In this document: piece after piece, positions 8,736 to 51,487 of the stretch
How the letters are laid out: the number at the start of each line of letters is the position of its first letter
Position numbering within the stretch: position 1 is the stretch's first letter
Source: Nemertoderma westbladi
Lineage: Eukaryota > Animalia > Xenacoelomorpha
Assembly (NCBI GenBank): GCA_032718475.1
Contig: JAUCBJ010006644.1
Coordinates: 1 to 51,487 of the forward strand
Direction: 5' to 3'
DNA length: 51,487 nt
The notes under the pieces: generated by a model
Told to the model about the DNA's origin: nothing
Seen by the model: only the letters and a program-made list of their open reading frames with translations
The model's database searches: none
Position numbers and translations under genes: made by a program

Positions 8736-9267
8736 TGTGACGGGATCCAGGAGGGATCCCGATTTATCCGGTGTTTAGTTTACGCGTCCCCGCCGTGTAT
8801 AAAGAGTAAACGGAAATAGTGAATGAGTTCTGATATTCGGTGTATAATAATTGATAGGTATAAGATATAGATATGATGACTGTAGTATAATATACGGAAG
8901 GCGGGATACGGTAACTAAAGTCCCGTGCTCCCCTATCTAAACTAACTAACCTACACTGCACTGAGATAACTGAATTACTGACATTGTGTTACTGGTTATA
9001 TTGCACGGTGGCCTTATTGCTCTACTCAATCGATGCCTTGCCCCCCTCTGATTGGTTGATACCCTTGTTGGCGCCCCGTGGAGTGTTCCCGTTCACTCCA
9101 CCTGTACTCTCTGGGTTAGGGGTTTGGCCCCTGACCCTTTATTGTGTGCTTCCTTCCCACTCTTATTGGGATGGCACGAGTTGGTTAATTGCCCAATCTC
9201 GTGGCTCCCAATATTGCTTATCGGCTTATAACTTTATGGGGTGTTAGCGGGATTGAATAAGCTAACA
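8736..9267 (-). repeat. 3' LTR (532 bp) of the deleted copy
   Basis: TGTGACGGGATCC...GCTAACA, homologous to 27074-27611 with several indels, followed by the PPT complement CTCCCCCCC. Confidence 0.93.
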
Positions 9268-9980
9268 CTCCCCCCCATGCTATCTTCCCGGTAAGAAGAT
9301 AGCATCAACCAAAAAGTGCGCTACAATCCCGCTGGATCCCGATCTAGTATCGGGTGTGGGGTGGAATTCTTTTCTCTTGGAGCCGGCTTTCCAGACCGCC
9401 CCCTATGGGTATGATAACGCTACCCTGTGTGCCTGGCGTCTCATGTCGGGCCGATCGCGCTCACCTCTCACGCAACTTTTGTTTCCCCAACACTTCCGCC
9501 CCATCTCCTCTTCACTCTCACTCTAACTCTCTCATACACTTGGGCCTCCTCGTCCCTCACTCAACCTCTTATTCTCCCCCCCCCCCACGCTAGAATTGCG
9601 TCCGCACACTCTCCGCACTCCGCACTATTACTCCGTCCCTCAACCTCACTCTGACTGTCCCATCCCTTCTGACAAATCTCCCCCCCCTCTTGTGCCGTCG
9701 CACTCAAGAAGTGTGGAATTGTCTGGTGTCTCGTCCATAGTCCCATAGTCAGTTATCCCCCAGTCCCAGTGGCTAATTGAGAAAGGTTGTATGGCTATAG
9801 TACTTACTCCGAACGTATATATTTCTAGATTACTAATTACTACGTACGTACATACAAATTGCAATTGCATATGATTATTTGCATTAATTAGATTTGTACT
9901 TAATAGTTCGTACGTCCCACGCGGCGCCTTCCAGGCGTACCACGTCTAAGTCCCAGTCTCTCTCCCTCGACTCCGGGAAC

Positions 9981-12227
9981 CTATCTGTTCCTCTGGGGAT
10001 AGTTCCCCCTGGCGTCCTCTTCCCTGGGTCGTTTCTTGGTTATCACCGTTCCTCTGGCATTATCCGCCTTCTGTTTTCGGACCTTCGCCGCCACCTCCCT
10101 GCTGATCCCGGTCGTTGGCTCCTTGGGCGCTGGTGTTATTAGTGCCCGATATCGCTTCGCCGGTGGCCCCTCAGAGTGGCCCGGTTGTCTCCCTCTGGTG
10201 GCGTCCCATAGGATCATTTTCATTGCCTTTGGTACGTGCTCCGCCAAGAAATCCCTAAACTCCCTTCGGTTGTCTGGCGTCCACCTGTCCAGATACCTTT
10301 GCGTGTTCATCACTCCAGCGTACGACGCCGCCGTTGCTACCTCTTGGTAGGTAAACGGTAGCCTCCGCTTTATGATTTCCATGTGAGTCTCCTGATTGAT
10401 AAGGAAGAAACCCCACTTAAATTCCTGGGCCTTCATGCGCTGGCGCGTCATGGCCCCGACGTCGGCCCACTCCTCGAACCTTGTGAACTTCTCCTCGTCG
10501 TTCATCCAGTCGCACTCGCGTCCGTAGTGTCCCCGAAAGTGGCACTTTGTACATCGATTATGCAACCGTGGGCATGCCCCCATCCTGTGGCTTTGTTCTC
10601 GACAGTAGAGACAAAAAGTTCCCTTTTGGAACCGGTAAAGGCAATTCTTTTCTTGGTGGGTCTGTCTCCCACAATAGTCGCAGCCGAGTACCAATGTCTC
10701 CCGTCCCACCTCGTCCTTCGTCCCAAGCGATCTCCGCGGTCTGTGGAGTCGCTGGTAGGCGAACTTCTCTACGTTGGCCTCTCTATCTACATCGATCTCT
10801 CCGCCCCTCTCGGGCATCGTCTCCCCGAATACTATCCGTGGTGCCGTCCCCGGTTGTTCGCCCAACCTGATGGTGCCCCCCGCGAAATCCATCGCCGGCT
10901 CCTCGTGCACCCAGGTCCGCTTTGTTCCCGCGAACATGCATCCCGATGTCTCCGACATCCCAAATGGTATCTTGCTCTTAATTGGACCACTCAGCGTCCA
11001 CCCGAATGGTGTTAATATGGCCACCGGGTCACTCTGCTTGTCTTCGCCGAAGACCGTTTGCATTCTTTCGTGGGCTGTTGGGCAGTCCATACCTACTATG
11101 ATGGATACCTTCCTAACGTCCACGTCTGGGATTGAGAAGTCAATGTTGTCCAGGAATTTGTACTGCTCAACCTCGATGTTGGTTGGCCGCCTGGCATTGA
11201 TATTAATTGACTCTATCACTTGAATGGGGTCGATGGTTGCCCCATAGTCGCATCCTGGTGCCACTGCTGTAATTGCGCACCGTCCTGTTCTCATCTCCAG
11301 GACCTCATCTTTGCTAGAGATGGTTGTTACCGCCATCCTGCTCGGCCTCGTTCTCAATCCTATCTCCACGGCCACCCATTCCTCGATTAATGTGAAGGCA
11401 GCTCGACTATCAACCAGCATTAGTGTTGTTACTGATCGATTGCCTTCCCCGATCACTCGCACTGGTACTACTCCGAGTAGCACCGTTCCCCTCTTCTTCG
11501 CCCCTACTGTGCTCGTCGCCATCGTTTGGCCTCTCCTTTGACCAAATTTCATTGGCTTCTCCTTGCACTCCCTTGCTCTATGTCCACTCATTACACATCG
11601 CGAGCAGATTTTATTGCTGAACGCATAATCTATCTGATCCTGCCTGGGTAGCGCCTGCCAGTACCTGCAGTTCATAGTTTGATGAAGCGCATTTGCGTGT
11701 AGCTGACATTTGCTCTTTGGGTCGTAGCCTTCTTTATACAGTGCATTGCGTATCGCGGTTGCGTTCGTACCGAAGTCCCTACTATTCTTATTGTTTGGGT
11801 TTTGCCTACTGGACGTACTGGGGTTATGTTTATTTGTGCTGTTATTGTTTCCCTGTCCGTTCCATGATGTTGTCTTATTCTCGGCTAGCTGTGGACTTGC
11901 AGTCCCCTGCGTCGCTGCATATGGCAATGATTGCCTGAGTCTCGGTAATGCGTTCGATGTGTTGTGCTCTGGTTTCGGTCTATGGTAGTCTGTCTTCGGT
12001 CCCTTTCCCAGGCTGTCTTCGCTATAGACTGGGTCAGTTATTAGTTCAGCCTCGTAGTTTAAGAAGTTTGACATTTCTTCTAAACCCGGTTCCGCACCCT
12101 TCTTATCTCGAGTGGAGAAGGCAATTTTCCTCCACTTGTTGCGCAGCCAGTTTGGTAGTGCCTGCGCTATCGTGGTGATGTTGTTGGACGCATTGAGCTC
12201 GTACGGTGTGTCTAGCGTCTTCAGCAC
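9981..12227 (-). pseudogene. In-frame chimera: Gag C-terminus and protease fused to ORF3 zinc knuckles
   Basis: Pol-derived ...GCMFAGT joins ORF3-derived KRTWVHE at about 10922. The protease motif is LVDSRA rather than LVDSGA, and there is an upstream frameshift near 12296. Confidence 0.85.
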
Positions 12228-12426
12228 GATTAGCGCCTTTTCGACTTTGTTAGCGAACGTCTTAATGCTAACGGGATTATCCTGTAGGCCACCGCGATGT
12301 TATGCCTCTCAGCGTCTGCCTGATGATCTTGGCCGGGTGCCCGTATTCCCTATCCAGTGCCCGCCATGCTGTCGTGAAGCCGCCCTCTATTCCTTGATAT
12401 TGCCTCACGATGTCGTATGCTGGGCC

Positions 12427-13598
12427 TCACGTGTACACTTGTAGATACTTTAGGCACTCCGCCTGCGTCAAGTTTTTTGTTAGTATTTCGTTACTATACA
12501 TTCGCCGAAACTGTAGATATTCTTCCGGCCTACTCCCATCGAATTTGCATGGTTCCACGGGTGGTAGCTCGATCCTCGTTTTCAACGCATCGATCAATGT
12601 GGCCATCCCCATCGCCTGCGCTTCCAATGGATTCGACGGGTGCTGTATAGTTTCACCTGTCTGGTGCGTTCCGTCTGTCCTATTTCTTGACTTTCTCTGG
12701 CTTTGGTATGTCATCGGGGGTAGCGGCCCCCTCCATATATCTGTGTCACACGACCTGTTTTCGTCCAAGGGTCTCGTTGTTCTTGCTACTATCGGGGTAT
12801 ATTGTTGATATTGTGATGGGGGAATGTCACCCTGTCCCCCCCCCCCACCGGTATGTTTGGTACTGGGGTTGATGTTAATATGTTGGGGCCCATACACCTA
12901 TCCGCAATAATTCCCCCCTCCCCTGGGTATATGTTATGTCCCTGCATGCTGTAGTCATACTGCTGTGCTGATACCGGTATAGGCCTATCAGCTTCTGGCC
13001 TACCCGTCGGTATGTATTCCGCGACTTCCGGGTTCAATCCCGTTGTCCACGCTATCCCATCGCCTACATTGCCTCTCTCAGTATGGCCTACGGTATGTGC
13101 AGTAAGGCCTACAGTATGTCCTACAGTCTGCATGTGTTGTTCGGGATTGAAGTTTATTCTTCTCGAATAATCCTCCCCGCGGCTACCGTATTCTCGATCG
13201 GTAGGTATATCCCGTCGGAAAGTTTCTCTTCGACCCCCCTCTCTACTGTCCTCATCTTCGTACCGGTACATCGCGTACCCCTCTCTCGGCGCGTAGTGTG
13301 CCTCGCCGGGTCGCATCTCTCCGGGGCGACGGCAATCTCCCGGAGTCCGACCCCACTGACTCTCCGTTCTCATCTCAACTACCGACGGCTCGCTATCCGT
13401 CCTCGCTCTTCTATCGTTCGCGGCGATACCTCTACTACTGTCTTCTCTTCTTCTCCTTTCAGTGGAGTATTCCCGCTCGTGAGATCTCTCGCCGACCTCC
13501 CGGTTAAACCCCACTCTTCTTCTTCCCTCTTCTGATCGGGCTCGACGCTTCGTCCGCCCTCTTACGACGTCAACCTGTCTCTCCCTGCTCGGTCGCAC
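12427..13598 (-). pseudogene. Frameshifted N-terminal gag region of the deleted copy
   Basis: ORFs 12427-12897 and 12789-13598 match 37050-38200 of the full element; the frame break lies in an 11-C run near 12840. Confidence 0.8.
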
Positions 13599-13702
13599 GC
13601 CGCTGGGGATACTCGCAATCCCCCTATTACTTTCCTGACCAAATTGGTTTACTACGGAAGATCCGCAGTGGGCACACCTGAGCGGGTGTGGGCCACTCGG
13701 AC

Positions 13703-24982: not shown

Positions 24983-25013
24983 ATGTGTAAAAATCCTTGT
25001 GTGTATGTCACGA

Positions 25014-27073
25014 TCCACGAAGCTAAGGAAAATCAACTACTTTCGCTAAGAAAGATTTTCCTTAGCTGAGATGGTCTATTCATAGTGGACTATTTTACTT
25101 GTATGGGGCAGATTAGTTTTTTTTTGATAGGTGAAAAAACTAGCCTTTAAAAGTACCCTGAAATTTTGCATGTATATACTACTCGTCGAGGCGCATCTTT
25201 TGGACTGGGTCTCATATCCAGGAAAAATCTGGTTTCCATGGCAACGGACTTAGAAAAAAGTCTATGTATTTCAAGTCAATATTTATAACTCTATTTGTAG
25301 GAAAACTATAATAGATATAAACTTGGGGTTTCTCAACTCAACTATAAGGTCCATAGCAGAGCCGATTGAGGTTAAATAGAAAATCCAGTTACCTTGGCAA
25401 CCGGGCTAAACAGATGTTAAAATTTATAAAATGTTAATTTGAAGCCTAAGGTTAAGGTGTTATGACTTGGAACCAACCCCTACCCCCACGATATAACTTA
25501 TTCTGCGTCCGAATTTGATTGTTCTATTTTGCAGTTACCATGACAACCGCTGTAAACAGATGTTTTTATACAAAAATTACTCATTTGGACATAGACTTCG
25601 CTATAAAATTTTACGAAACTGGTTATGTGTTAACTAGACCACTAGTTGGAACTTTTAGTGAAACTAAAAAACATTCCAGAAATATCTAGTTACCGTGGTA
25701 ACTGGAGTTTATTACAGATTATATCATTCAAGTCTATATTCATCCACGAAGCTAAGGAAAATCAACTACTTTCGCTAAGAAAGATTTTCCTTAGCTGAGA
25801 TGGTCTATTCATAGTGGGCTATTTTACTTGTATGGGGCAGATTTAGTGTTTTTTGATTCCGGAAAAAACTAGCCTTTAAAAGTACCCTGAAATTTTCCAT
25901 GTATATACTACTCATCAAGGCGCGTCGTGTGGGATGGGTCTCATATCCAGGAAAAATCTGGTTTCCATGGCAACGGACTTTTAAAAAAGTCTATGTATTT
26001 CAAGTCAATATTTATAACTCTATTTGTAGAAAAACTATAATAGATATAAACTTGGGGTTCCTCAATTCAACTATAAGGTCCATAGCTGAGCCGATTGAGG
26101 TTAAATAGAAAATCCAGTTACCTTGGCAACAGGGCTAAACAGATGTTAAAATTTATTAAATGTTAATTTGAAGCCTAAGGTTAAGGTTTTATGACTTGGG
26201 ACCAACCCCTACCCCCACTATATACCTTATTCTGCGTCCGAATTTCATTGTTTTATTTTGCAGTTACCATGACAACCGCTGAAAACAGATGTTTTTATGC
26301 AAAAATTACTCATTTTGACATAGACTTCATGATAAAATTTTATGAAACTGCGTATGTGTTATGTGGACCACTATTTGGAACTTTTAGTGAAACTCAAAAC
26401 ATTCCAGAAATATCTAGTTACCATGGTAACTGGAGTTTATTAAAGTCTATATCATTCAAGTCTAAATTCAATACTCTATTTGTAGCAAAATAATGTAATA
26501 TATATAAATTTGGGGTTTTGCAACACATCTATAAGGTCCATATACAAGCCGTTCGAGGTTAATTACACAATCCAGTTACCATAGCAACAATATTAAACAG
26601 ATGTTAAAATTTATAAAATGATAATTTGAAGCACAAGTTAATAGTATAATGACTTGGGACCAAGACCTACCCCCACTATATGACTTATTCTGCATCCGAA
26701 TTACATTGTTCTATTTTTCAGTTTCCATGACAACCACTGCAAACAGATGCATTTTGAATTGTGGCCCTCTGTTTAATTTTCCTTAGCTTCGTGGTTGCAT
26801 TTCCTTTAGGAAATGCCTTTCTAGTAACTCTATTTATAGAATAACCGCAATAGATATAAACTTGGGGTTTCTCAACTCAATGATAAGGACAATTGTCGAG
26901 CTGATTGAGGTTAATTAGAAAATCCAGTTACCAGGGCAACCATGCTAAACAGATGTTCAAATTTATAAAATGGTTATTTGAAGCATAACATTAAGGTATT
27001 ACGACTTGGGACCAATCCCTACCCCCACTATATCACTAATTACGCATCCAATTTAAATTGTCGCATTTTTCAG
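25014..27073 (+). mobile_element. Non-autonomous Helitron-type element A, 5' part; continues at 41336-41615
   Basis: Starts A|TCCACGAAGCTAAGGAAAAT. It is interrupted by copy B and by the BEL/Pao element; removing the latter restores TTTTTCAGTTTCCATGACAACC. Confidence 0.8.
25743..26824 (+). mobile_element. Non-autonomous Helitron-type copy B (1082 bp) nested in copy A
   Basis: 5' TC; 3' hairpin GCATTTCCT-TT-AGGAAATGC then CTTT-CTAG; inserted at TATATTCA|TAACTCT with no TSD; 19-bp subterminal inverted repeat CCACGAAGCTAAGGAAAAT. Confidence 0.85.
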
Positions 27074-27611
27074 TGTGACGGGATCCAGGAGGGATCCCGA
27101 TTTATCCGATGTGGTATTTAGTCCACGCGTCCCCGCCGTGTATAAGAGTGAAATAAAGATAACTGAGTTCTGAAGTTCGGTGTATAATAATAGGTTATAG
27201 GATATAGATATATTGTGAATTATACGGTAGGCGGGATACGGTAACTAAAGTCCCGTGATCCCCTAACTAAACTAATTGGCTGTACCCTATGCTAGCACTG
27301 CTGCACTGAGATAACTGAATCACTGATTAATAGGTTATTGGTTATATTGCACGGTGGCCTTACTGCTACTCAATCGATGCCATTCCCCCCTCTGATTGGT
27401 TAATACCCTTGTTGGCGCCCCGTGGAGTATTCCCGTTCACTCCACCTGTTCTCCTTGGGTTAGGGGTTTGGCCCCTGACCCTCTATTGTGTGCTTCCTTC
27501 CCACTCTTATTGGGATGGCACGAGTTGGTTAATTGCCCAATCTCGTGGCTCCCAATATTGCTTATCGGCTAATAACTTTATGGGGTGTTGGCGGGATTGA
27601 ATAAGCTAACA
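27074..27611 (-). repeat. 3' LTR
   Basis: 538 bp; I found one substitution versus 40793-41330 (CCCTATG vs CCCTACG). Confidence 0.97.
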
Positions 27612-27649
27612 CTCCCCCCCATGCTATCTTCCCGGTAAGAAGATAGCAT
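27612..27649 (-). other. Polypurine tract with adjacent 11-bp stem-loop
   Basis: GGGGGGGAG on the minus strand abuts the LTR; ATGCTATCTTC-CCGGTAA-GAAGATAGCAT lies at 27621-27649. Confidence 0.85.
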
Positions 27650-30856: not shown

Positions 30857-31370
30857 TCCGAACACTACACTCGCTCACCTGTAGGGTGGTGCCTTACCAA
30901 GGCGCAATACAGATGAGTGATGTATTAAGATGTTTCGTACAGTTCGATAATGGCCTACTTTTCTACTTAACTGCGCCTTTCAAGCTTAATTTAATCTAAT
31001 TAATTTCGGAGCTAGTAAATCAGCCTAATTTACAATTTCCGTCCGTTACTTTTATTATGTTCTAGAACGACTTTCCTTGTGTTACCACTATTTTCCGATT
31101 TTTTAGCCCTATTCTATTTATTTATTTATTTTGCTTTGATTCTACTGTCCTACTACTTACTACTGCCTATGGATTTATTCTATTCTCTCTCTGATCCATA
31201 TTCTGGCCTACTCAGTGGGCCTATGCAGTACAGCAGTATGCGTCGTGTGGCCACACGATTTATCCAGCTGCACTCATATGCCCCCCTCTCTCTACTAACT
31301 CTACTTACTGCTAACTAATATCTATATCCTATTTACCCCTTTTACCTCTCACTCTCTCTCTCTAACTAAT

Positions 31371-32020
31371 GGTACTACGTACCCCCTAACTCTAACTCTA
31401 ACTAGGTATCACGTACCTACTAACTCTAACTCTAACTAGGTACTACGTACCTACTAACTCTAACTAACTATTGGTACTACGTACCCTCTAACTCTAACTC
31501 TAACTAGGTACTACGTACCTACTAACTCTCTAACTATCGGTACTACGTACCCTCTAACTCTAACTCTAACTAGGTACTACGTACCTACTAACTCTCTAAC
31601 TGTCGGTACTACGTACCTACTAACTAACTCTAGGTACTACGTACCTACTAACTCTCTAACTATCGGTACTACGTACCCTCTAACTCTAACTCTAACTAGG
31701 TACTACGTACCTACTAACTCTCTTACTATCGGTACTACGTACCTACTAACTCTAACTCTAACTAGGTACTACGTACCCACTAACTCTCTTACTATCGGTA
31801 CTACGTACCCTCTAACTCTAACTCTAACTAGGTACTACGTACCTACTAACTCTCTAACTATCGGTACTACGTACCCTCTAACTAACTAACTCTAGGTACT
31901 ACGTACCTACTAACTAACTAACTTTAGGTACTACGTACCTACTAACTAACTAACTCTAGGTACTACGTACCTACTAACTAACTAACTTTAGGTACTACGT
32001 ACCTACTAACTAACTAACTA
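31371..32020. repeat. Internal tandem array, about 20 units of ~33 bp with a palindromic core
   Basis: GGTACTACGTACC cores separated by variable TAACTC/TAAC microrepeats. Confidence 0.92.
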
Positions 32021-37448: not shown

Positions 37449-39245
37449 TCACCCTGTCCCCCCCCCCACCGGTATGTCTGGTACTGGGGTTGATGTTAAT
37501 ATGTTGGGGCCCATACACCTATCCGCAATAATTCCCCCCTCCCCTGGGTATATGTTATGTCCCTGCATGCTGTAGTCATACTGCTGTGCTGGTACCGGTA
37601 TAGGCCTATCAGCTTCTGGCCTACTCGCCGGTATGTATTCCGCGACTTCCGGGTTTAATCCCATCGTCCGCGCTATCCTATCGCCTACATTGCCTCTCTC
37701 AGTATGGCCTACGGTATGTGCAGTAAGACCTACAGTATGCCCTACAGTCTGCATGTGTTGCTCGGGATCGAAGTTTATTCTTCTCGAATAATCCTCCCCG
37801 CGGCTACCGTATTCTCGATCGGTAGGTATATTCCGTCGGAAAGTTTCTCTTCGACCCCTCTCTCCACTGTTTTCATCTTCGTACCGGTACATCGCGTACC
37901 CCTCTCTCGGCGTGTAATGCGTCTCACCGGATCGCATCCCTCCGGGGCGACGGCAATCTCCCGGAGTCCGACCCCACTGACTTTCCGTTCTCATCTCGAC
38001 TACCGACGGCTCGCTGTCCGTCCTCGCTCTTCTATCGTTTGCGGCGATACTCCTACTACTGTCTTCCTCTCTTCTCCTATCAGTGGAATATTCCCGCTCA
38101 CGAGATCTCTCGTCGACCTCCCGGTTAAACCCCACTGTTCTTCTTTCCTCCTCTGATCGGGCTCGACGCTCCGTCTGCCCTCCCGCGACGTCAACCTGTC
38201 TTTCTCTGCTCGATCGCACGTCGCTGGGGATACTCGCAATCCCCCTATTACTTTCCGTCGCCGGTTGTTGCGGTTTACCTTGTTCGGCCCTCGCATTATC
38301 CGCTGACGGCTGTGGGACACTCTCTGCCCCCCCCCTTCTCGCCACTAACTCTCTGTTGTGGGGCCCTCGTAGCCCCCCCCCCCCCCACTCGCTACATCTA
38401 ACTTCGCTACCTCTCGCCCCGCTACTATATATCTCTCTAGTCGACACATCAACCCTACCACAGTCGTGTCTGTTCACCCCCGCCTCTCCCTCTGCTATTG
38501 CGTTGCCTTCCAGGCCCTCTACTCCCTGCCTACCAACCACGCGGCCTACCAGGCCCTCTCCTCCCTGTCTACTAACTACGCGGCCTACCAGGCCCTCTGC
38601 TCCCTGTCTACTAACTACGTGGCCTACCAGGCCCTCTGCTCCCTGGTTACATAGGCCCGACGTGTTTACATTAATAGCACCCATATTGGAAACGGAATTA
38701 ATTTGCTCATTTGAAACAAAATCATTTGTATTATTCTGCGCGACTACGTTATCTGAATTATTTTGTAAATTCGGGCTAAGATCATTATTTGAATTATTCG
38801 AATTATTCTGTGTAATTGCGTTATTTAAGTTATTTTGTAGGTCCGAATTCGAGTTATTATTTTGATTATTTGAATTATTTTGCGTAACTACATCAATATT
38901 AGGATTATTTTCTACATTATCACTGGGATTGTTCTGATTTAAATTTAAATTACTACCACTAGGCAAAGTATTTCCTGTAATAAAGGTTTGATTAGCGTTA
39001 TCCCATACGGTACTATTAATATCAACAACGTCTACTGTACCATTATTATTACCCCCCCCGCCCGTACGGTCGCACCAGTTTTGGGTCTGTCGTGCGGTCC
39101 CTGTCAGTGGAGTATTAATAAATATATCTACGGCCCTCGGCTCCTCAAAAATACTCGAGCCGGCCCCAGTTTCAGACGGCGGTCCCACTCGCACGTATTC
39201 CAACTCGTGCTCCCCTCTAATTATATTTCCCGCAAACTCACTCAC
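37449..39245 (-). CDS. Low-complexity N-terminal gag extension, part 2 (Asn-rich, 13-aa repeats)
   Basis: 598-aa ORF ending just after a 10-G run; the adjacent frame runs on into gag-pol. Confidence 0.7.
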   Translation of the reverse strand: MSEFAGNIIRGEHELEYVRVGPPSETGAGSSIFEEPRAVDIFINTPLTGTARQTQNWCDRTGGGGNNNGTVDVVDINSTVWDNANQTFITGNTLPSGSNLNLNQNNPSDNVENNPNIDVVTQNNSNNQNNNSNSDLQNNLNNAITQNNSNNSNNDLSPNLQNNSDNVVAQNNTNDFVSNEQINSVSNMGAINVNTSGLCNQGAEGLVGHVVSRQGAEGLVGRVVSRQGGEGLVGRVVGRQGVEGLEGNAIAEGEAGVNRHDCGRVDVSTREIYSSGARGSEVRCSEWGGGGLRGPHNRELVARRGGAESVPQPSADNARAEQGKPQQPATESNRGIASIPSDVRSSRERQVDVAGGQTERRARSEEERRTVGFNREVDERSREREYSTDRRREEDSSRSIAANDRRARTDSEPSVVEMRTESQWGRTPGDCRRPGGMRSGETHYTPREGYAMYRYEDENSGERGRRETFRRNIPTDREYGSRGEDYSRRINFDPEQHMQTVGHTVGLTAHTVGHTERGNVGDRIARTMGLNPEVAEYIPASRPEADRPIPVPAQQYDYSMQGHNIYPGEGGIIADRCMGPNILTSTPVPDIPVGGGTG

Positions 39246-40678
39246 CGTTTCTTTAATTCCTTGCGCTCCTTTTCACTCTCTGCCACTATCCCCTCACGCT
39301 CCTGGGTGTCCTTGATGGCCGAGTCTGCGGCACTCTTAATGCTCTCCCTTCGTCTCGCCCCACGCTCTTTGCGTTCCTTTTCCTTTCTCGTCTCATATTC
39401 CTTGCGTTCCGCCTCACGCTCCTTGCGTTCCCTTTCCTCCCTTGCCTCACGCTCCTTGCGTTCCCCTTCCTCTCTCGCCTCACGCTCCTTGCGTTCCTTT
39501 TCCATTCTCGCCTCACGCTCCTTGCGTTCCGCCTCACGCTCCTTGCGTTCCCTTTCCTCTCTCGCTTCACGCTCCCTACACTCCCTTTCCTCTATCTCAT
39601 CATACTCCCTTAGGCTTTTCAAAGCCCTTTCGGCCCTTTCTCCGGTTTCTCTAAGCAATACCGTTTCCCTCTCTAACCGCACTCTTCCCTCCTCTAGCCG
39701 TTCCTTCATTTCTCTCTGACCTTGCTCTGCCATGCTGAGACGGTATGCGGCTCCTATTTTTCTCACCGCTCTTTCTTTCGCGGAGGATGTAGCAGACTTA
39801 TCGGTTACGACGGACTTCCCCCGCCTTCCCGACCTACTAACTTTCTCCCACTTCCCGGAGCTTTCTCCGACCGACGAGGCCGAATCCTCGGTGTTAACCT
39901 CGGATTCGCCCCCTTCGAGTCCCCTCCAACCCACCGGTTTTACTCCCCGGGCATCGACCAAGTATGGCCCTATGTACACTGGCGCTACACTAGGTTCCAT
40001 ACTCCCACACTCCCATAGTTCAAACAGTTCGCCGGCTATCCTTTCTGCTCTCTCCCCGGCCAGTTCTCTCTGCCCAAAACGTATTAGGTAATTTAAGTGT
40101 CTATCCGACTCACCTAGTCGCTTTCTCACTCTCACCTCGTCTACCTTCGCCCCTTCCTTCTTGGCGTCGTTTATCAGCTTCCGGGTCGCGTTGTAGGCCC
40201 GTCGAAGTCGCTCAGAAACCCCGACGTCCTCGTCGCCGACCTCTCCTCCGTCCCTCCGGGTCCGACGTCGTACCGGCGGCTCCACCGTCGCCGTTCCGGT
40301 GGGCCGTCCGTCGCCCTCGGCCTGTAGCTGGCCGGCGACATCGGTACCGATCTCTCCTCCGTCTCTTCGTGTCCGGCGTCGCACCGTCGGCCCCACCGTC
40401 GCCGTTTCGGTGGGCCGCCCGTCGCCCTCGGCCTGTAGCTGGCCGGCGACATCGGCGCGCCGTTCTCCCTCTCGTGTCGACTCATCTCCTTCTCCCTCCG
40501 TCTCGCTCTCTCTCTCTCTTGGCTCGACTTCGGGTTCCAGGCCCTCCTCGTCCTGTACTTCCGGTTCGCCCGTTATCGATGGCTCCGGCGTCGTGGGCCT
40601 GTATCGTTTGGTCGCGGCCTCGCGGATCGTTAGGTCTTCGTCCGGGGTCCGCGTCGGTGTCTCGCCCGATTCACTCAT
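39242..40678 (-). CDS. N-terminal gag extension, part 1 (37-aa duplication, E/R/K coiled-coil-like repeats)
   Basis: 478-aa ATG-initiated ORF starting about 115 bp inside the 5' LTR boundary and overlapping the next ORF by 4 nt. Confidence 0.7.
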   Translation of the reverse strand: MSESGETPTRTPDEDLTIREAATKRYRPTTPEPSITGEPEVQDEEGLEPEVEPRERESETEGEGDESTREGERRADVAGQLQAEGDGRPTETATVGPTVRRRTRRDGGEIGTDVAGQLQAEGDGRPTGTATVEPPVRRRTRRDGGEVGDEDVGVSERLRRAYNATRKLINDAKKEGAKVDEVRVRKRLGESDRHLNYLIRFGQRELAGERAERIAGELFELWECGSMEPSVAPVYIGPYLVDARGVKPVGWRGLEGGESEVNTEDSASSVGESSGKWEKVSRSGRRGKSVVTDKSATSSAKERAVRKIGAAYRLSMAEQGQREMKERLEEGRVRLERETVLLRETGERAERALKSLREYDEIEERECREREAREERERKEREAERKEREARMEKERKEREAREEGERKEREAREERERKEREAERKEYETRKEKERKERGARRRESIKSAADSAIKDTQEREGIVAESEKERKELKKR

Positions 40679-40792
40679 CTCGTTTGTGGCTGATGATTCG
40701 GCTAGCTAGGTTGCAGTTCTTAGAGTTTGACTAGGGCGGCAGCTCGGTTTAGTTACTGAGTTTAGCTGGGGAAGCAACACCGTTTTAGTTAC

Positions 40793-41330
40793 TGTGACGG
40801 GATCCAGGAGGGATCCCGATTTATCCGATGTGGTATTTAGTCCACGCGTCCCCGCCGTGTATAAGAGTGAAATAAAGATAACTGAGTTCTGAAGTTCGGT
40901 GTATAATAATAGGTTATAGGATATAGATATATTGTGAATTATACGGTAGGCGGGATACGGTAACTAAAGTCCCGTGATCCCCTAACTAAACTAATTGGCT
41001 GTACCCTACGCTAGCACTGCTGCACTGAGATAACTGAATCACTGATTAATAGGTTATTGGTTATATTGCACGGTGGCCTTACTGCTACTCAATCGATGCC
41101 ATTCCCCCCTCTGATTGGTTAATACCCTTGTTGGCGCCCCGTGGAGTATTCCCGTTCACTCCACCTGTTCTCCTTGGGTTAGGGGTTTGGCCCCTGACCC
41201 TCTATTGTGTGCTTCCTTCCCACTCTTATTGGGATGGCACGAGTTGGTTAATTGCCCAATCTCGTGGCTCCCAATATTGCTTATCGGCTAATAACTTTAT
41301 GGGGTGTTGGCGGGATTGAATAAGCTAACA
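40793..41330 (-). repeat. 5' LTR
   Basis: 538 bp, TGTTAGC...CGTCACA on the minus strand, flanked by the TTCAG TSD. Confidence 0.97.
41031..41067 (-). promoter_or_regulatory. Candidate LTR core promoter (TATA plus initiator)
   Basis: Minus-strand TATAA starts at 41065 and the A of TCAGTT is at 41035, 30 nt apart. A similar CAATATA...TTCAGTTAT occurs in the related LTR at about 50814-50855. Confidence 0.4.
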
Positions 41331-41335
41331 TTCAG

Positions 41336-44300
41336 TTTCCATGACAACCACTACAAACAGACGTTTTAGCAATTAAATCCTTTGTTTTACACATTAACTA
41401 CTCAATGAAACTGAATTGAAGTATGTGTCACCTGGAACCACAAACCGGATCTTAATGTAATCCTCAGCAGTTCTAGAAAATTCTGGTTGCCATTGTAATA
41501 TGAGTTTTTAAGGCATATGCCTCTTAACTCGGTAAAGCAATGAAGTGATGAGTCAAAGAGTGTTGAATTTTCCTTAGCTTCGTGGTTGCATTTCCTTTAG
41601 GAAATGCCTTTCTAGTACACGAAGCTAAGGAAAATCAACTACTTTCGCTAAGAAAGATTTTCCTTAGCTGAGATGGTGTATTCATAGTGGGCTATTTTAC
41701 TTGTGTGAGGCAGATTTAGTGTTTTTTGGTCGGGGAAAAAACTAGCCTTTAAAAGTACCCTGAAATTTTGCATGTATGTACTACTCATCGAGGCGCGTCG
41801 TGTGGGATGGGTCTCATATTCAGGAAAAATCTGGTTTCCATGGCAACGGACTTAGAAAAAAGTCTATGTATTTCAAGTCAATATTTATAACTCTATTTGT
41901 AGGAAAACTATAATACATATAAACTTGGGATTTCTCAACTCAACTATAAGGTCCATAGCAGAGCCGATTGAGGTTAAATAGAAATTCCAGTTACCTTGGC
42001 AACCGGGCTAAACAGATGTTAAAATTTATAAAATGTTAATTTGAAGCCTAAGGTTAATGTGTTATGTCTTGGGACCAACCCCTACCCCCACTATATGACT
42101 TATTCTGCGTCCGAATTTCATTGTTTAATTTTGCAGTTACCATGACAACCGCTGAAAACAGATGTTTTTATACAAAAATAACTCATTTGGACATAGACTT
42201 CGCGATAAAATTTTACGAAATTGGATATGTGTTATCTGGACCACTAGTTGGAACTTTTAGTAAAACCTAAAACATTCCATAAATATCTTGTTACCATGGT
42301 AACTGGAGTTTATTAAAGTCGATATCATTCAAGTCTAAATTCAATACTCTATTTGCAGCAAAATAATGTAATAAATATAAATTTGGGGTTTTGCAAGTCA
42401 TCTGTAAGGTCCATATACAATCCATTCGAGGTTAATTACACAATCCAATTACCATAGCAACAAGACTAAACAGATGTTAAAATTTCTAAAATGATAATTT
42501 GAAACACAAGTTAATAGTATTATGACTTGGGACCAAGACCTACCCCCATTATATGACTTATTCTGCATCCGAATTACATTGTTCTATTTTTCAGTTTCCA
42601 TGACAACCACTGCAAACAGATGCATTATGATAGAAAATCGGTAATTTGGACATAAACTACAATATTTTCTGAAACTTGGTATGTGTTATCTGAACCACAA
42701 TCTGGACTGAATCTTTTTTCAAAGGTAAAACCAACAGTTCCAGAGAATTCTAGTTTCCATGGGAATATAAGTTATTTATTGGCAAATGCTACTAAACTAG
42801 GCTAAGCAACAAACCAAATTATGGCCCTTTGTTTAATTTTCCTTAGCTTCGTGGTTGCATTTCCTTTAGGAAATGCCTTTCTAGTATGTGTTATCTGAAC
42901 CACAATCTGGACTGAATCTTTTTTCAAAGGTAAAACCAACAGTTCCAGAGAGATCCACGAAGCTAAGGAAAATCAACTACTTTCGCTAAGAAAGATTTTC
43001 CTTAGCTGAGATGGTGTATTCATAGTGGGCTATTTTACTTGTATGGAGCAGATTTAGTGTTTTTTGATTCCGGAAAAAACTAGCCTTTAAAAGTACCCTG
43101 AAATTTTGCATGTATGTACTACTCGTCGAGGCGCATCGTGTGGGCTGGGTCTCATATCCAGGAAAAATCTGGTTTCCATGGCAACGGACTTAGAAAAAAG
43201 TCTATGTATTTCAAGTCAATATTTATAACTATATTTGTAGGAAAACTATAATAGATATAAACTTGGGGTTTCTCAACTCAACTATAAGGTCCATAGCAGA
43301 GCCGATTGAGGTTAAATAGAAAATCCAGTTACCTTGGCAACCGGGATAAACAGATGTTAAAATTTATAAAATGTTAATTTGAAGCCTAAGGACAAGGTGT
43401 TATTACTTGGGACCAAACCCTACCCCCACTATATAACTTATTCTGCGTCCAAATTTCATTGTTCTATTTTGCAGTTACCATGACAACCGCTGAAAACAGA
43501 TGTTTTTATACAAAAATAACTCATTTGGACATATACTTCGCGATAAAATTTTACCAAACTGGGTATGTGTTATCTGGACCAATAGTTGGAACTTTTAGTG
43601 AAACTCAAAACATTCCAGAAATATCTTGTTACCACGGTAACTGGAGTTTATTAAAGTCTATATCATTCAAGTCTAAATTCAATACTCTATAAATATTCTC
43701 GTATTGTGTGAGGCAGATTTGTTTTTTTTAAGTCCAGCAAAAACTAGCCTTTAAAAGTACCCTGAAATTTTGCATGTATATACTACTCGTCGAGGCGCAT
43801 CTTTTGGGCTGGGTCTCATATCCAGGAAAAATCTGGTTTCCATGGCAACGGACTTAGAAAAAAGTCTATGTATTTCAAGTCAATATTTAAAACTCTATTT
43901 GTAGGAAAACTATAATAGATATAAACTTGGGGTTTCTCAACACAACTATAAGGTCCATAGCAGAGCCGATTGAGGTTAAATAGAAAATCCAGTTACCTTG
44001 GCAACAGGGATAAACAGATGTTAAAATTTATAAAATGTTAATTTGAAGCCTAAGGTTAAGGCGTTATGACTAGGGACCAATCCCTACCCCCACTATATAA
44101 CATATTCTGCATCCGAATTTGATTGTTCTATTTTGCAGTTACCATAACAACCGCTGAAAACAGATGTTTTTACACAAAAATTACTCATTTGGACATATAC
44201 TTCGCGATAAAATTTCAGGAAACTGGGTATGTGTTATCTGGACCACTAGTTGGAACTATTAGTGAAACTCAAAACATACCAGAAATATCTAGTTACCATG

Positions 44301-47300
44301 GTAACTGGAGTTTATTAAAGTCTATATTATTCAAGTATATATTCATAACTCTATTTGTAGCAAAACTGTAATATATATAAACTTGGGGTTTTGCAACTCA
44401 TCTATAAGGTCCATATACAAGCCGTTTGAGGTTAATTAGAAAATCCATTTACCATAGCAACCAGACTAAACAGATTTTCAAATTTATAAAATGATAATTT
44501 GAAGCACAAGTTAATAGTATTATGACTTGGGACCAAGACCTACCCCCACTATATGACTTATTCTACATCCGAATTACATTGTTCTATTTTTCAGTTTCCA
44601 TGACAACCACTGCAAACAGATGCATTTTGATCCACGAAGCTAAGGAAAATCAACTACTTTCGCTAAGAAAGATTTTCCTTAGCTGAGATGGTCTATTCAT
44701 AGTGGGCTGTTTTACTTGTATGGAGCAGATTTAGTGTTTTTTGATAGGTGAAAAAACTAGCCTTTAAAAGTACCCTGAAATTTTGCATGTATATACAACT
44801 CATCAAGGCGCGTCGTGTGGGATGGGTCTCATATCCTGGAAAAATCTGGTTTCCATGGCAACGGACTTAGAAAAAAGTCTATGTATTTCAAGTCAATATT
44901 TCTAACTCTATTTGTAGGAAAACTATAATACATATAAACTTGGGGTTTCTCAACACAACTATAAGATCCATAGCAGAGCCAATTGAGGTTAAATAGAAAA
45001 TCCAGTTACCTTGGCAACCGGGCTAAACAGATGTTAAAATTTTTAAAATGTTAATTTGAAGCCTAAGGTTAAGGTGTGATGACTTGGGACCAATCCCTAC
45101 CCCCACTATATAACTTATTCTGCGTCCGAATTTGATTGTTCTATTTTGCAGTTACCATGACAACCGCTGAAAACAGATGTTTTTATACAACAATTATTCA
45201 TTTGGACATAGACTTCACGATAAAATTTTACAAAACTGGGTATGTGTTATCTGGACCACTAGTTGGAACTTTTAGTGAAACTCAAAACATTCCAGAAATA
45301 TCTAGTTACCATGGTAACTGGAGCTTATTAAAGTCAATATCATTCAAGTCTATATTTTTAACTCTTGTTTGTAGGAAAACTGTATTAGATATAAATATTG
45401 GGTTTCCCAACTCAACTATAAGGAAGGTCCTTAGAGGAGCCAATTGTGGTTAATTAGAAAATCCAGTTACCTTGGTAACCAGGCTAAACAGATGTTATAA
45501 TTTAAAAAATTATAATTAGAAACACAAGTTAAAGGCATTATGACTTGGGACCAACCCCTACCACCATAATATCACTTATTCTGCATCCAATCTACGTTGT
45601 TCTATTTGCCAGTTACCTTGACAACCACTGCAAACAGACTTTTTAACAAATTAATAATTAATTTTGAACATAAACTACTCAATGAAGCTTCCTTGAAGTC
45701 GATGTGTCACCTGGAACCACAAACTAGATCTTAATGTAAAACTCAGCATTTCTAGAAAAGTCCAGTTACCTTGGCAATACCGGGAGTTCTTTTAACTCGG
45801 TAAATCAATGAAATGATGAGTCAAAGAGTGTTTAATTTTCCTTAGCTTCGTGGTTGCATTTCCTTTAGGAAATGCCTTTCTAGTAGAAAATCTGTAATTT
45901 GGACATAAACTACAATATTTTCTGAAACTCGGTATATGTGTTATCTGAACCACAATCTGGACTAAATCTTCTTTCAAAGGTAAAACCAGCAGTTCCAGAA
46001 AACTCTAGTTTCCATGGGAATAGAAGTTATTTATTGGCAAATGCTACTAAACTAGGCTAAGCAACAAACCAAATTGTGGCCCTTTGTTTAATTTTCCTTA
46101 GCTTCGTGGTTGCATTTCCTTTAGGAAATGCCTTTCTAGTAACTCTATTTGTAGCAAAACTGTAATCCACGAAGCTAAGGAAAATCAACTACTTTCGCTA
46201 AGAAAGATATTCCTTAGCTGAGATGGTGTATTCATAGTGGGCTATTTTACTTGTATGGAGCAGATTTAGTGTTTTTTAAGTCCAGCAAAAACTAGCCTTT
46301 AAAAGTACCCTGAAATTTTGCATGTATATACAACTCATCAAGGCGCGTCGTGTGGGATGGGTCTCATATCCAGGAAAAATCTGGTTTCCATGGCAACGGA
46401 CTTAGAAAAAAGTCTATGTATTTCAAGTCAATATTTGTAACTCTATTTGTGGGAAAACTATAATACATATAAACTTGGGGTTTCTCAACACAACTATAAG
46501 GTCCATAGCAGAGCCGATTGAGGTTAAATAGAAAATCCAGTTACCTGGGCAACCGGGCTAAACAGATGTTTAAATTTTTAAAATGTTAATTTGAAGCCTA
46601 AGGTTAAGGTGTGATGATTTGGGACCAATCCCTACCCCCACTATATAACTTATTCTGCGTCCGAATTTGATTGTTCTATTTTGCAGTTACCTTGACAACC
46701 GCTGAAAACAGATGTTTTTATACAAAAATTATTCATTTGGACATAGACTTCACGATAAAATTTTACGAAACTAGGTACGTGTTATCTGGACCACTAGTTG
46801 GAACTTTTAGTGAAACTCAAAACATTCCAGAAATATCTAGTTACCATGGTAACTGTAGTTTTTTTAAAGTCTATATCATTCAAGTCTATATTCATAACTC
46901 TATTTGGAGCAAAACTGTAATATATATAAACTTGGGGATTTGCAACTCATCTATAAGGTCCATATACAAGCCGTTCGAAGTTAATTAGAAAATCCAGTTA
47001 CCATAGCAACAAGACTAAACAGATGTTAAAATTAATAAAATGATAATTTGAAGCACAATTTAATAGTATTATGACTTGGGACCAACACCTACCCCCACTA
47101 TATGACTTATTCTGCATCCGAATTACATTGTTCTATTTTTCAGTTTCCATGACAACCACTGCAAACAGATTCATTTTGATAGAAAATCTGTAATTTGGAC
47201 ATAAACTACAATATTTTCTGAAACTCGATATGTGTTATCTGAAAAACAATCTGGACTGAATCTTTTTTCAAAGGTAAAACCAACAGTTCCAGAGAACTCT

Positions 47301-48649
47301 ACATAGTTTCCATGGGAATATAAGTTATTTATTGGCAAATGCTCCTAAACTAGGCTAAGCAACGAACCAAATTGTGGCCGTTTGTTTAATTTTCCTTAGC
47401 TTCGTGGTTGCATTTCCTTTAGGAAATGCCTTTCTAGTACAGTTACCATAGCAACAAGTCTAAACAGATGTTAAAATTTATAAAATGATAATTTGAAGCA
47501 CAAGTTAATAGTATTATGACTTGGGACTAACCCCTACCCCCACTATATGACTTATTCTGCATCCGAATCCACGAAGCTAAGGAAAATCAACTACTTTCGC
47601 TAAGAAAGATTTTCCTTAGCTGAGATGGTCTATTCATAGTGGGCTATTTTACTTGTGTGGGGCAGATTTAGTGTTTTTTAAGTCCAGCAAAAACTAGCCT
47701 TTAAAAGTACCCTGAAATTTTGCATGTATATACTACTCATCAAGGCGCGTCGTGTGGGATGGGTCTCATATCCAGGAAAAATCTGGTTTCCATGGCAACG
47801 GACTTTTAAAAAAGTCTATGTATTTCAAGTCAATATTTATAATTCTATTTGTAGAAAAACTATAATAGATATAAACTTGGGGTTTCTCAATTCAACTATA
47901 AGGTCCATAGCTGAGCCGATTGAGGTTAAATAGAAAATCCAGTTACCTTGGCAACCGGGCTAAACAGATGTTAAAATTTATTAAATGTTAATTTGAAGCC
48001 TAAGGTTAAGGTGATATGACTTGGGACCAACCCCTACCCCCACTATATACCTTATTCTGCGTCCGAATTTCATTGTTTTATTTTGCAGTTACCATGACAA
48101 CCGCTGAAAACAGATGTTTTTATACAAAAATTACTCATTTTGACATAGACTTCATGATAAAATTTTATGAAACTGCGTATGTGTTATGTGGACCACTAGT
48201 TGGAACTTTTAGTGAAACTCAAAACATTCCAGAAATATCTAGTTACCATGGTAACTGGAGTTTATTAAAGTCTATATCATTCAAGTCTAAATTCAATACT
48301 CTATTTGTAGCAAAATAATGTAATATATATAAATTTGGGGTTTTGCAACACATCTATAAGGTCCATATACAAGCCGTTCGAGGTTAATTACACAATCCAG
48401 TTACCATAGCAACAATATTAAACAGATGTTAAAATTTATAAAATGATAATTTTAAGCACAAGTTAATAGTATAATGACTTGGGACCAAGACCTACCCCCA
48501 CTATATGACTTATTCTGCATCCGAATTACATTGTTCTATTTTTCAGTTTCCATGACAACCACTGCAAACAGATGCATTGTGAATTGTGGCCCTTTGTTTA
48601 ATTTTCCTTAGCTTCGTGGTTGCATTTCCTTTAGGAAATGCCTTTCTAG
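41336..48649 (+). mobile_element. Cluster of tandem and nested non-autonomous Helitron-type copies
   Basis: 5' ends at 41616 (TA variant), 42954, 44631, 46166 and 47568. Hairpin-CTAG|T 3' ends at 41615, 42884, 45883, 46139, 47437 and 48649. Copy 47568-48649 is 1082 bp and nearly identical to copy B. Confidence 0.85.
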
Positions 48650-49461
48650 TATATTTGATTTCTAGTTTATCTATAAGTCAGTATACTAAATCAGGCTCAT
48701 CTGTTTTATGTCTACCATACTGTCAGACATCATAAGACACTTAAATTAGCAGGTTAAACTGCTAAAGGTCTAAAAGCGCGAACACTGTACCACGTGTGTA
48801 ACGTACTCAATCATGTGTAGCTTACTGGACCACATATGTAACTATATATAGCTATATAACTATATAAAATATTAATAAAATTATAATAAAATTATATTAT
48901 AAATAATATTAAAATGTTATAATTAGCAACCATGCAGTAGACAAATTATCTCATATAGTGTTGCTAATATCAGCTACGTAGTGTAGCTGATGAGCCAAAT
49001 CCCTCGAAACACATGCAAAAATGTAACCAATGTGATAATTTTACTTACAGTATTTAAACAGGGTTGCGCTTTGTGTCCCTGCTCTAATAAAACGATGACT
49101 ACTTACGGTTGAACAGATAGGAACATGTTGTTTCTCTGTTTCCAAATAATTTACCTTGCTTGATATTGGTCTGTCAAAAACATAATTCGTTCAACTCAAA
49201 ATTATATAAATATATATATATATAAATATAATAATAATAATAATAAAATATCTCAGCTCGTGAAAAAATAAGCTAAATGAATTATTGGGGATACCACTTA
49301 CTTATTTTACGCCTAATATAAAGTAGGAATATAAGTCGTATAAAGTAGAATAGCCATAATAAAACGTTTCAGTGGCAGGGAACCATTGCCAAGTACCGGA
49401 GCCGGAGAGGAGAACCTTGCACTTGTAGCCCCTCAGCGGCGGAAGGATGAAGTTCCAATGA

Positions 49462-50500
49462 GTCACAACAACCCGTTATCGAACCAACCTCACAACACCC
49501 CGTTATCGAACCAACCTCACAACAACACGTTATCGAACCAACCTCACAACACCCCATTATAGAACCAACCTCACAACACCCTGTTATCGAACCAACGTCA
49601 TAACAACCCGTTTTCGAACCAACTACACAACACCCCGTTATTGAATCAACGTCACAACACCCCGTTATCGAACCAACCTCACAACACCCCGTTATCGAAC
49701 CAACATCACAACAACCCGTTATCGAACCAACCTCATAACAACCCGTTATCGAACCAACCTCACAATACCCTGTTATCGAACCAACCTCACAACACCCTGT
49801 TATCGAACCAACATCATAACAACCCGTTTTCAAACCAACCTCACAATACCCTGTTATCGAACCAACATCACAACACCCCGTTATCGAACCAACTACACAA
49901 CACCCCGTTATCAAACCAACGTTACAACACCCCGTTATCGAACCAACCTCACAACACCCCGTTATCGAACCAACTACACAACACCCCGTTATCGAACCAA
50001 CCTCACAACACCCCGTTATCGAACCAACATCACAACAACCCGTTATCGAACCAACTACACAACACCCTGTTATCGAACCAACCTCACAACAACCCGTTAT
50101 CGAACCAACCTCACAATACCCTGTTATCGAACCAAAGTCACAACAACCCATTATCGAACCAACTACACAACTCCCCGTTATCGAACCAACTACACAACAC
50201 CCCGTTATCGAACCAACCTCACAACACCCATTTATCGAACCAACATCACAACAACCCATTATCGAACCAACTACACAACACCCCGTTATCGAACCAACCT
50301 CACAACACCCCGTTATCGAACCAACATCACAACAACCCGTTATTGAAACAACTACACAACACCCCATTATCGAACCAACCTCACAACACCCCGTTATCGA
50401 ACCAACATCACAACAACCCGTTATCGAACCAACTACACAACACCCCGTTATCGAACCAACTACACAACACCCCGTTATTGAACCAACCTCACAACACCCT
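49462..50500. repeat. 27-bp minisatellite, about 38 copies
   Basis: Unit CCCCGTTATCGAACCAACCTCACAACA; it produces the 9-aa periodic ORFs on both strands. Confidence 0.95.
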
Positions 50501-51113
50501 GTGAGCGGATTCAATTCCGCCCACCACCCCATAAAGTTGGGAAACGGCGCCTTTTAGCAATATTGGGGATACGAGGTTAATCTCCAATTAACCTCGTATC
50601 ACACAACCAATAACGGGGACAACAAACCCCCAAAGGGCCACACAAATGGAGGTCAGAGGTTAAACCTCCGGGAGAGGGAAAGTGACAGCAGCAGGGGGGG
50701 GGGGGGGGGGAAACACTCCCACAGAGGTGGGAGCCAAGAATTAGGTTATTGGCCAATGGGGGACAAGGAAAGTGCATCCGCTAAGTAACAAGGCCACAAG
50801 TAAAGTAGGTAATCAATATATTACCGGTTGGTGTTTTATATCCTAGTTCAGTTATATCAGTCACTTAGGGCAGTATGGTGACACTTTAATACCATCACGC
50901 CGTCACCAATCATATATATCATATTTTACCGGTACATGACAATATTACCCTATTCAATCTGAACTGTGCTATCATATATTACCGATCGTATACTATATTC
51001 TACATTTGGAGTTTATCAATAACATTGGAACAACAACAAACTCTTTTCCATTCGCACGGTGATGCTGACGCGTAAATAAATCAAACCGGTCGGGATCCTC
51101 TGATCCTGTCACA
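50500..51113 (+). mobile_element. LTR (614 bp) of a related BEL/Pao family
   Basis: Start TGTGAGCGGATTCAATTCCGCCCACCACCCCATAAAGTT and end CGGGATCCTCTGATCCTGTCACA resemble the sense-strand ends of the 538-bp LTR. Confidence 0.85.
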
Positions 51114-51129
51114 GTATTAAAGTCGCTTA

Positions 51130-51487
51130 CTGGCCTAGGGGCTGGCTCGGGTAGTGTTCACGAGGAGCCAGAAGTTATGGAAACGTTTGTTAATACCCCA
51201 CTTACAGGGACTTAGATAATAGTAATAGTAATTTAAATCCGAACGATCCTAATTTAAATGTAGGAAATAATTCAAATAATCTAGATTCGAATATACAAAA
51301 TAATTCAAATAATTTAAATTTTAATACGCAAAATAATCTAAATAATAACCTTAATTTAAACGAACAAAATAACCCCAATTCTAACCAAAATAATTCTAAT
51401 AATTTAAATAATTCAGAAAATAATATTAATAATGGTGCTATTAATGTAAACGCGGCAGATGTAGGTGGTCCGACCAGTAGGGGCCTG
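51130..51487 (+). pseudogene. Degenerate homolog of the Asn-rich gag extension, running off the window
   Basis: GAGSGSVHEEPEVMETFVNTPLTGT* and NNGAINVN match GAGSSIFEEPRAVDIFINTPLTGT and NMGAINVN in ORF 37449-39245. Confidence 0.75.

Follow-up and report, generated by a model that had tools for sequence, protein, structure and literature searches.

The window (the whole stretch of 51,487 nucleotides of Nemertoderma westbladi DNA analysed here) contains the LTR retrotransposon E1 and parts of two related elements, E2 and E3 (Table 1). E1 occupies 41330-27074 on the minus strand (14,257 bp). Its two LTRs are both 538 bp long, with a single difference at 41009, and the 5-bp target-site duplication CTGAA is found at 41335-41331 and 27073-27069. 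The gag-pol ORF matches Peptidase_A17 (8e-40), DUF5641 (4e-24) and DUF1759 (9.5e-11), the integrase is located after the reverse transcriptase (RT), giving the order PR-RT-RH-IN, and acidic motifs like those of RNase H were spotted by eye in pol. In the RT-RH region the identity to the best database proteins is at most 38%, and the matches listed carry the same domain families.

By its pol domains E1 is a divergent BEL/Pao LTR retrotransposon, despite its departure from the primer-binding site (PBS) that the ICTV describes for this family. It shares with the Belpaoviridae (Semotivirus) the DUF1759, Peptidase_A17 and DUF5641 domains, the PR-RT-RH-IN order, TG...CA LTRs whose length is within 0.2-1.2 kb, a polypurine tract and a 5-bp target-site duplication. 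According to the ICTV description, the PBS is 18 nt long and fits tRNA-Arg or tRNA-Gly, and genomes measure 4.2-10 kb (PMC8742986), whereas E1 has no tRNA PBS, measures 14.3 kb and contains three extra ORFs. A quickly built, unrooted tree of 67 rows, which contains no reference sequences of the named lineages (Sinbad, Suzu, BEL, Pao, Tas, Dan and Flow), places E1 on a long branch (3.09), and how closely E1 is related to the relatives with predicted spliced primers described below is uncertain.

Further features set the scene around these genes. ORF1, ORF2 and gag-pol overlap successively in different frames (by 31 and 47 nt; 40705-32129) and ORF2 lacks an early methionine, suggesting that frameshifting or splicing might produce a very long Gag N-terminus. 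A 66-bp tandem array of about 10 copies lies between pol and ORF3 (31360-32011), and a satellite-like repeat with a spacing of about 458 bp surrounds E1 (25000-27070 and 41331-48650). The internal deletion of E2 fuses pol (aa 650) in frame to the C-terminal part of ORF3 (aa 520 on), resulting in a 772-aa ORF; on its 5' side E2 is cut beside a repeat that also occurs at 5302-5653 and 6907-6994. E3 is represented in the window by its 5' LTR and the first 374 nt that follow it. About 25 nt past its LTR it becomes homologous to the start of E1 ORF2 (51114-51487 versus 39272-38780), and because E3 enters ORF2-like sequence so soon, about 1.6 kb of E1, comprising the leader and ORF1, has no counterpart in it. 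E3 is preceded by a 27-bp array (49463-50499) with an open frame on both strands.

Table 1. Positions of the elements, ORFs and predicted priming features in the window
Feature	Position	Strand	Remarks
E2, 5'-truncated, internally deleted relative	8736-13646	-	3' LTR 86% to E1, primer word unchanged
E1 3' LTR	27074-27611	-	R region holds second copy of primer word
Polypurine tract	27612-27620	-	Abuts E1 3' LTR
ORF3, 827 aa	28322-30805	-	Likely WRN/DEDDy-type 3'-5' exonuclease domain, aa 85-300 (~30553-29906)
gag-pol ORF, 1788 aa	32129-37495	-	DUF1759, protease, RT, Peptidase_A17/RNase H region, integrase, DUF5641
ORF2, 607 aa, Asn-rich start	37449-39272	-	Without Pfam family
ORF1, 487 aa, charged, low-complexity	39242-40705	-	Without Pfam family
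Second copy of PBS word	40748-40756	-	Within 36-nt imperfect leader duplication
Predicted PBS GTAACTAAA	40784-40792	-	Offset 0 from LTR, not tRNA-type; complement in LTR
E1 5' LTR (TG...CA)	40793-41330	-	One difference to 3' LTR; target-site duplication
U5 terminal hairpin just before LTR end	40798-40818	-	Also in E2 and E3
Predicted inner helix, 40959-40949 with 40856-40847, closing variable loop	40847-40959	-	Minimum free energy prediction; weak
Predicted self-primer core TTTAGTTAC	40960-40968	-	Perfect complement of PBS; 3' C is would-be priming end
5' part of R, predicted outer arm, colinear pairing with leader	40969-41035	-	2 of 38 mismatched pairs as low
Candidate promoter	41032-41065	-	TATA-like word at 41065 and TCAGTT with initiator-like A at 41035
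5' LTR of diverged family E3	50500-51113	+	Primer core at 50883-50892
E3 PBS (51114-51123) and leader	51114-51146	+	~33-bp predicted duplex with 50857-50892

Complementarity between the LTRs and the bases that follow them

No TGG occurs within the first 100 nt past the E1 LTR, a departure from the 18-nt PBS complementary to a host tRNA 3' end that the ICTV describes. ARAGORN found no tRNA gene in the window or in 24 loci, and an Rfam search of the window returned no match. The first 9 nt after the LTR pair perfectly with 40968-40960. The initial annotation had placed a 9-mer other than TGG straight after the 5' LTR (40792-40784), its perfect complement in the sense LTR (40968-40960) and a repeat of the motif at 40756-40748, and had pointed to a related element in which both sites differ and still pair; all of these coordinates proved correct, and the related element is E3, where the pairing is perfect over 10 bp (51114-51123 with 50883-50892). 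The E3 core falls in the same alignment column as the E1 motif, and the first TGG after the E3 LTR is at +18. Pairing the site of one family with the LTR of the other yields no more than 5 Watson-Crick bp; allowing G-U at offset 2 raises this to 9.

A complement of the anchored 9-mer arises by chance in 0.35% of 20,000 dinucleotide shuffles of the E1 LTR, or in 0.8% if offsets of 0-3 are allowed, and the corresponding value for the first 9 nt of E3 is 0.31%; across the interior of E1, 29 of 13,170 9-mers have a complement in the LTR. The E1 core is AU-rich and just 9 bp long, as against 10-12 bp in the relatives and 11 in Tf1, and words similar to the motif are present several times in the LTR. 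The initiator-like A of TCAGTT at 41035 is situated 67 nt before the motif, and this word is also found in E2 (8971) and E3 (50850). The TATAAC at 41065, 30 nt upstream of the initiator word, is off-consensus and was missed by a TATA pattern scan.

RNA folding predictions extend the pairing beyond these cores. The segment of the E1 LTR from the initiator to the motif pairs with the leader at -49.9 (14 of 1000 shuffles), and the leader is the best partner of the E1 5' segment among 524 internal windows. For E3 the predicted duplex reaches -37.3 kcal/mol (0 of 1000 shuffles), and some of the ORF2-like bases are used by its outer part. The outer arm taken alone is not significant in E1 (128 of 1000 shuffles as low) and stands at 4 of 1000 in E3, while cross-family duplexes between E1 and E3 are not significant (224 and 80 of 1000). 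The predicted pair probability of the core is 0.63-0.96 in E1 over the nine start sites tried, and 0.85-0.96 in E3 for starts at or after 50850, dropping to 0.04-0.08 with two starts 33-60 nt upstream of the initiator word. An inner helix, weakly above shuffles (38 and 37 of 500 as low), and the U5 hairpin make up the rest of the fold. The side helices of a three-duplex "pretzel", as in Tf1, were not found, their pairings being no better than shuffles (105, 106, 157 and 346 of 500 as low). The second leader copy was rejected as a PBS, having a pairing probability of 0.0 with the motif and being absent from E3; it is likely to be dispensable.

Variation among copies was surveyed by aligning contigs from four public DNA runs (three samples) to 40690-41075 and counting substitutions with a share of at least 6%, of which 40 of 42 are listed. 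None of the listed substitutions falls in the PBS (9 nt), in the U5 hairpin region 40793-40818 (26 nt), in 40845-40860 or in 40946-40968. The 85-nt loop contains 19 of the listed variable sites, and the outer arms contain 17. Eight of these 17 outer-arm variants break predicted pairs, three keep them and six are at unpaired positions, which indicates that the outer arm of E1 is not tightly constrained. Four of the 32 listed contig pieces lose their match exactly at 40784, the end of the 9-mer. A contig of run X5 (one record) has two transitions in the PBS, both of which would form G-U pairs with the E1 primer word; as the contigs are short, PBS and motif variants are not phaseable. No RNA run was listed for this stretch, and run X6, which may be RNA, does not cover the motif or the PBS; neither result bears on expression.

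Split and contiguous complements in BEL/Pao relatives

Relatives were drawn from the best 80 of 474 confirmed metagenome loci by RT alignment, which are 31-37% identical. Of these, 49 loci, equivalent to 40 families at 80% nucleotide identity, were retained, and 31 were left out as having no locatable gag start or duplicating another locus. Their LTR ends were determined by a candidate scan with mismatched-pair nulls. A scan of viral contigs with the RT and a scan of metagenomes with the LTR pattern gave no match.

Visual inspection revealed several relatives without TGG in which the post-LTR bases match the joint that results when a GT-AG intron is removed from their own LTR. Junction matches of at least 10 bp were found in 13 of 49 loci under a strict acceptor rule (39 of 2332 mismatched pairs) and in 16 under a loose one (74 of 2332). 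A revised rule, which demands a CA or TA end and a PBS starting with GT and was tuned on the earlier hits and applied equally to the null, recovers junction pairing of 10-12 bp in 18 of 49 loci as against 34 of 2332 mismatched pairs. A contiguous match to the LTR of 11-12 bp is seen in four further loci (L003, L009, L045 and L076), compared with 11 of 2332 mismatched pairs. Self-complementarity thus totals 22 of the 49 readable relatives, or 18 of the 40 families, against a mismatched-pair rate of 0.5-1.5%. The PBS sequences differ among families, each fitting its own LTR or junction, and the duplex starts 0-5 nt past the LTR in the relatives and at the first base in E1 and E3. The PBS begins with GT in all 15 spliced family representatives checked, as it does in E1 and E3; this start is demanded by the revised rule, but it was first visible in the hits of the loose and strict rules. 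Over 20 elements, pairing also tends to continue beyond the core, with a median rank of 0.18; the tendency is strongest in E3, L078, L009, E1 and L033.

The introns in these LTRs are 77-426 nt long, lie within R and have GTAAG, GTACGT or GTATGT donors, with TATA-like words upstream of the donor in 4 of 15 relatives. As a direct test, L003 was compared with L007, a member of the same family, and found to be without exactly the 168-nt GT..AG intron of the latter; such a precise loss is what reverse transcription of spliced RNA would leave. An intron was also sought in the LTRs of E1 and E3 and rejected, since no GT..AG junction there pairs with the PBS and the predicted primer is contiguous.

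Three of the 49 relatives (L025, L035 and L060) have a tRNA-type PBS (TGG); in the quick unrooted tree, a branch with support 96 sets these three rows apart from the others. For 20 of the 49, many of them with a partial LTR in the contig, the scan recovered neither pairing with their own LTR nor a tRNA-type site; L031, L037 and L043 have ample sequence, yet gave neither. In L021, L028, L040 and L049 the 6-7 nt after an acceptor-like AG are complementary to the start of the PBS, but a full 10-bp junction was not found. The LTRs of L003, L010, L030/L032 and L045 appear to end in TA rather than CA. In L076 a splice acceptor precedes the primer end in the 5' LTR (L076:145) and the joined form is found in the 3' LTR (L076:6924); this contig may merge two copies.

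A predicted self-primer, its alternatives and its wider meaning

In the replication of LTR elements the 3' end of the minus-strand primer sets the right end of the LTR. A duplex that begins at the first post-LTR base and tracks its own sequence across families is hence best read as a primer. The suggestion of self-priming in the initial annotation is well supported: pairing is found in two families of the window with different sequences, the paired sites are without listed variants, and 22 of 49 relatives are self-complementary. Taken together, these observations make it very probable that the primer of E1 is element RNA, and we consider it probable from the sequence evidence that E1 primes its minus strand with its own RNA, cut in cis, most plausibly by RNase H.

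In such a scheme, Pol II would start upstream of the motif, with 41035 as the candidate site, and the RNA would fold so as to pair 40968-40960 with 40792-40784. One cut just 3' of C40960, probably by the element's own RNase H, would then generate a 3'-OH exactly at the LTR boundary. As in Tf1, this single cut would be enough for an internal primer, which could keep its 67-nt 5' tail. RT would copy U5 and R back to the cut and then jump to the 3' R. Plus-strand synthesis would in turn copy the self-primer, so that the PBS would be re-templated from the LTR motif in each cycle, which would explain the covariation of the two sites. In most relatives, splicing of the intron in R would have to build the primer, while E1 and E3 would carry it ready-made, like the four relatives with contiguous matches. 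It is likely that E1 represents an intron-less self-primer form in a group whose predicted primers are mostly splice-built.

An alternative that we regard as improbable also uses element RNA, but its 3' end would be made by the ORF3 exonuclease in place of an RNase H cut in cis; the enzyme would trim either a short transcript or a partner genome's 3' R as far as the duplex edge. A WRN-type 3'-5' exonuclease is the probable product of ORF3: all 30 named Atlas hits of aa 85-300, from one language-model source, are to PF01612 (0.93-0.94), and the Atlas values taken together span 0.93-0.95. Searches of Pfam, NCBIfam, PHROG and PDB and for homologues with this domain were blank, the zinc-knuckle matches in ORF3 are weak, and its single-sequence fold (pLDDT 34) is unusable; P0125, the one representative hit, was rejected as a homologue: the match covers 19 residues and was summed over 14 repeats, in a protein that is unrelated. 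The rotifer LTR elements Juno and Vesta have an exonuclease-like DEDDy ORF3 after pol, as in E1, and in the accessible text of their description such ORFs are proposed to process the 3' ends of retrotransposon RNA (PMC5408684); these elements are not BEL/Pao as described there, the likeness to E1 ORF3 is one of description only, and the term "self-priming" has 0 occurrences in that paper. Trimming would also be compatible with the 3' R of E1, which holds a complete primer word in the absence of an LTR intron, but the four relatives with contiguous primers are equally intron-less and have no ORF3. None of the 80 relatives (best 80 of 474 loci) has an ORF3 homologue, and where a 3' LTR could be located (15 of the 21 self-complementary loci listed) just 60-355 nt separate pol from it, leaving no room there for an ORF3. 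The link between primer processing and ORF3 drawn in the initial annotation is not supported by these data. As self-complementary relatives do without ORF3, priming cannot generally require it, and cutting by RNase H would be simpler; ORF3 may still trim in the E1 lineage.

It also seems quite unlikely that a host RNA, such as a tRNA half, a mitochondrial tRNA or another small RNA, serves as the primer, with the LTR copy acting as a decoy or switch that hides the PBS. Host tRNA priming is what the ICTV describes for the family (PMC8742986), half-tRNA priming is known in copia lineages according to the accessible text of PMC6317226, and a word of just 9 nt could be present in some host RNA. However, the PBS differs among 18 families of relatives and the two of the window, each matching its own LTR or junction and not those of the others. 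Moreover, no TGG follows the E1 LTR, while true tRNA-type sites are plain in the three relatives that possess them. Chance complementarity, or a general stem of the 5' UTR with no role in priming, is strongly disfavoured and in our estimate highly improbable: the AU-rich motif, the similar words in the LTR, the background of internal 9-mers and the mismatches tolerated in the outer arms would fit it, but the duplex starts at the position required of a primer end, exactly in both window families and within 0-5 nt in the relatives, and the pairing retained across splice junctions greatly exceeds that of mismatched controls.

Priming from the element's own RNA has precedents in Tf1/sushi elements, Tj1, Tcn1 and plant TAR copia elements, as far as the accessible parts of the sources extend (PMC6317226, PMC4600332, PMC3601003, PMC5341516, bioRxiv 2022.12.06.519325). 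In Tf1 the pairing with the PBS spans 11 bases, and the RNase H cut falls between base 11 and base 12 (PMC7175516, accessible text). Like Tf1, Tf2, Tj1 and the Tf1/sushi group in general, E1 has no tRNA PBS and an LTR segment, of about 11 nt in those elements, that complements the post-LTR bases; in those elements an RNase H cut frees the primer (PMC7175516, PMC4600332 and bioRxiv 2022.12.06.519325, in their accessible parts), and such a cut is predicted for E1. Tf1/sushi elements are Ty3/gypsy chromoviruses, whereas E1 has BEL/Pao domains and no chromodomain family listed. In addition, the Tf1 primer consists of the first transcript bases, while that of E1 and E3 would lie inside the transcript, at a predicted distance of 33-67 nt from the candidate start, the side helices of the Tf1 pretzel were not found, and the intron-split primer of the BEL/Pao relatives is unlike Tf1/sushi. 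E1 priming thus likely works like that of Tf1, without E1 being a member of Tf1/sushi. For plant TAR copia (Houba, Osr-1) and Tcn1, self-priming has been predicted from LTR-PBS complementarity while their kin use tRNA; these belong to other superfamilies and other hosts, and no splice-built primer is described for them in the accessible text (PMC6317226).

The terms "PBS" and "tRNA" do not occur in the accessible main text of the Sinbad paper (PMC554778) or of a BEL/Pao survey (PMC3118150), and the accessible part of PMC8220671 mentions the PBS in general terms only. In the literature searched, which lay outside subscription journals, Repbase, GyDB and supplementary files, we found no description of self-priming or of an LTR intron in BEL/Pao, and the splice-built primer would be a priming route without a description there.

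BEL/Pao is a major group of animal LTR retrotransposons, and its reference description assumes tRNA priming. For the Cer7-type BEL elements of C. elegans a self-encoded tRNA-like primer has reportedly been proposed, and host-independent priming would then have been suggested before in this group; that RNA is said to lie elsewhere in the element, as opposed to the fold-back of the R region in E1. The present observations lead us to lean slightly towards a broader picture, in which a large part of BEL/Pao would use its own RNA and no tRNA, usually through a splice-assembled primer, while the E1 lineage would have a ready-made primer with a duplex extended toward the cap, and would have acquired a 3'-5' exonuclease with a possible role in shaping or protecting the end of the primer. 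The pair L007 (with intron) and L003 (without), from one family, makes the idea directly testable with RNA data. If true, self-priming as in Tf1 would extend to a third superfamily. It would account for BEL/Pao elements in which no PBS is detectable, and annotators would gain a new way to test LTR ends and start sites. Control of the PBS by tRNA fragments would not reach such elements. A splice-assembled primer would further tie their copying to host splicing, and the unspliced 3' R would be kept from competing.
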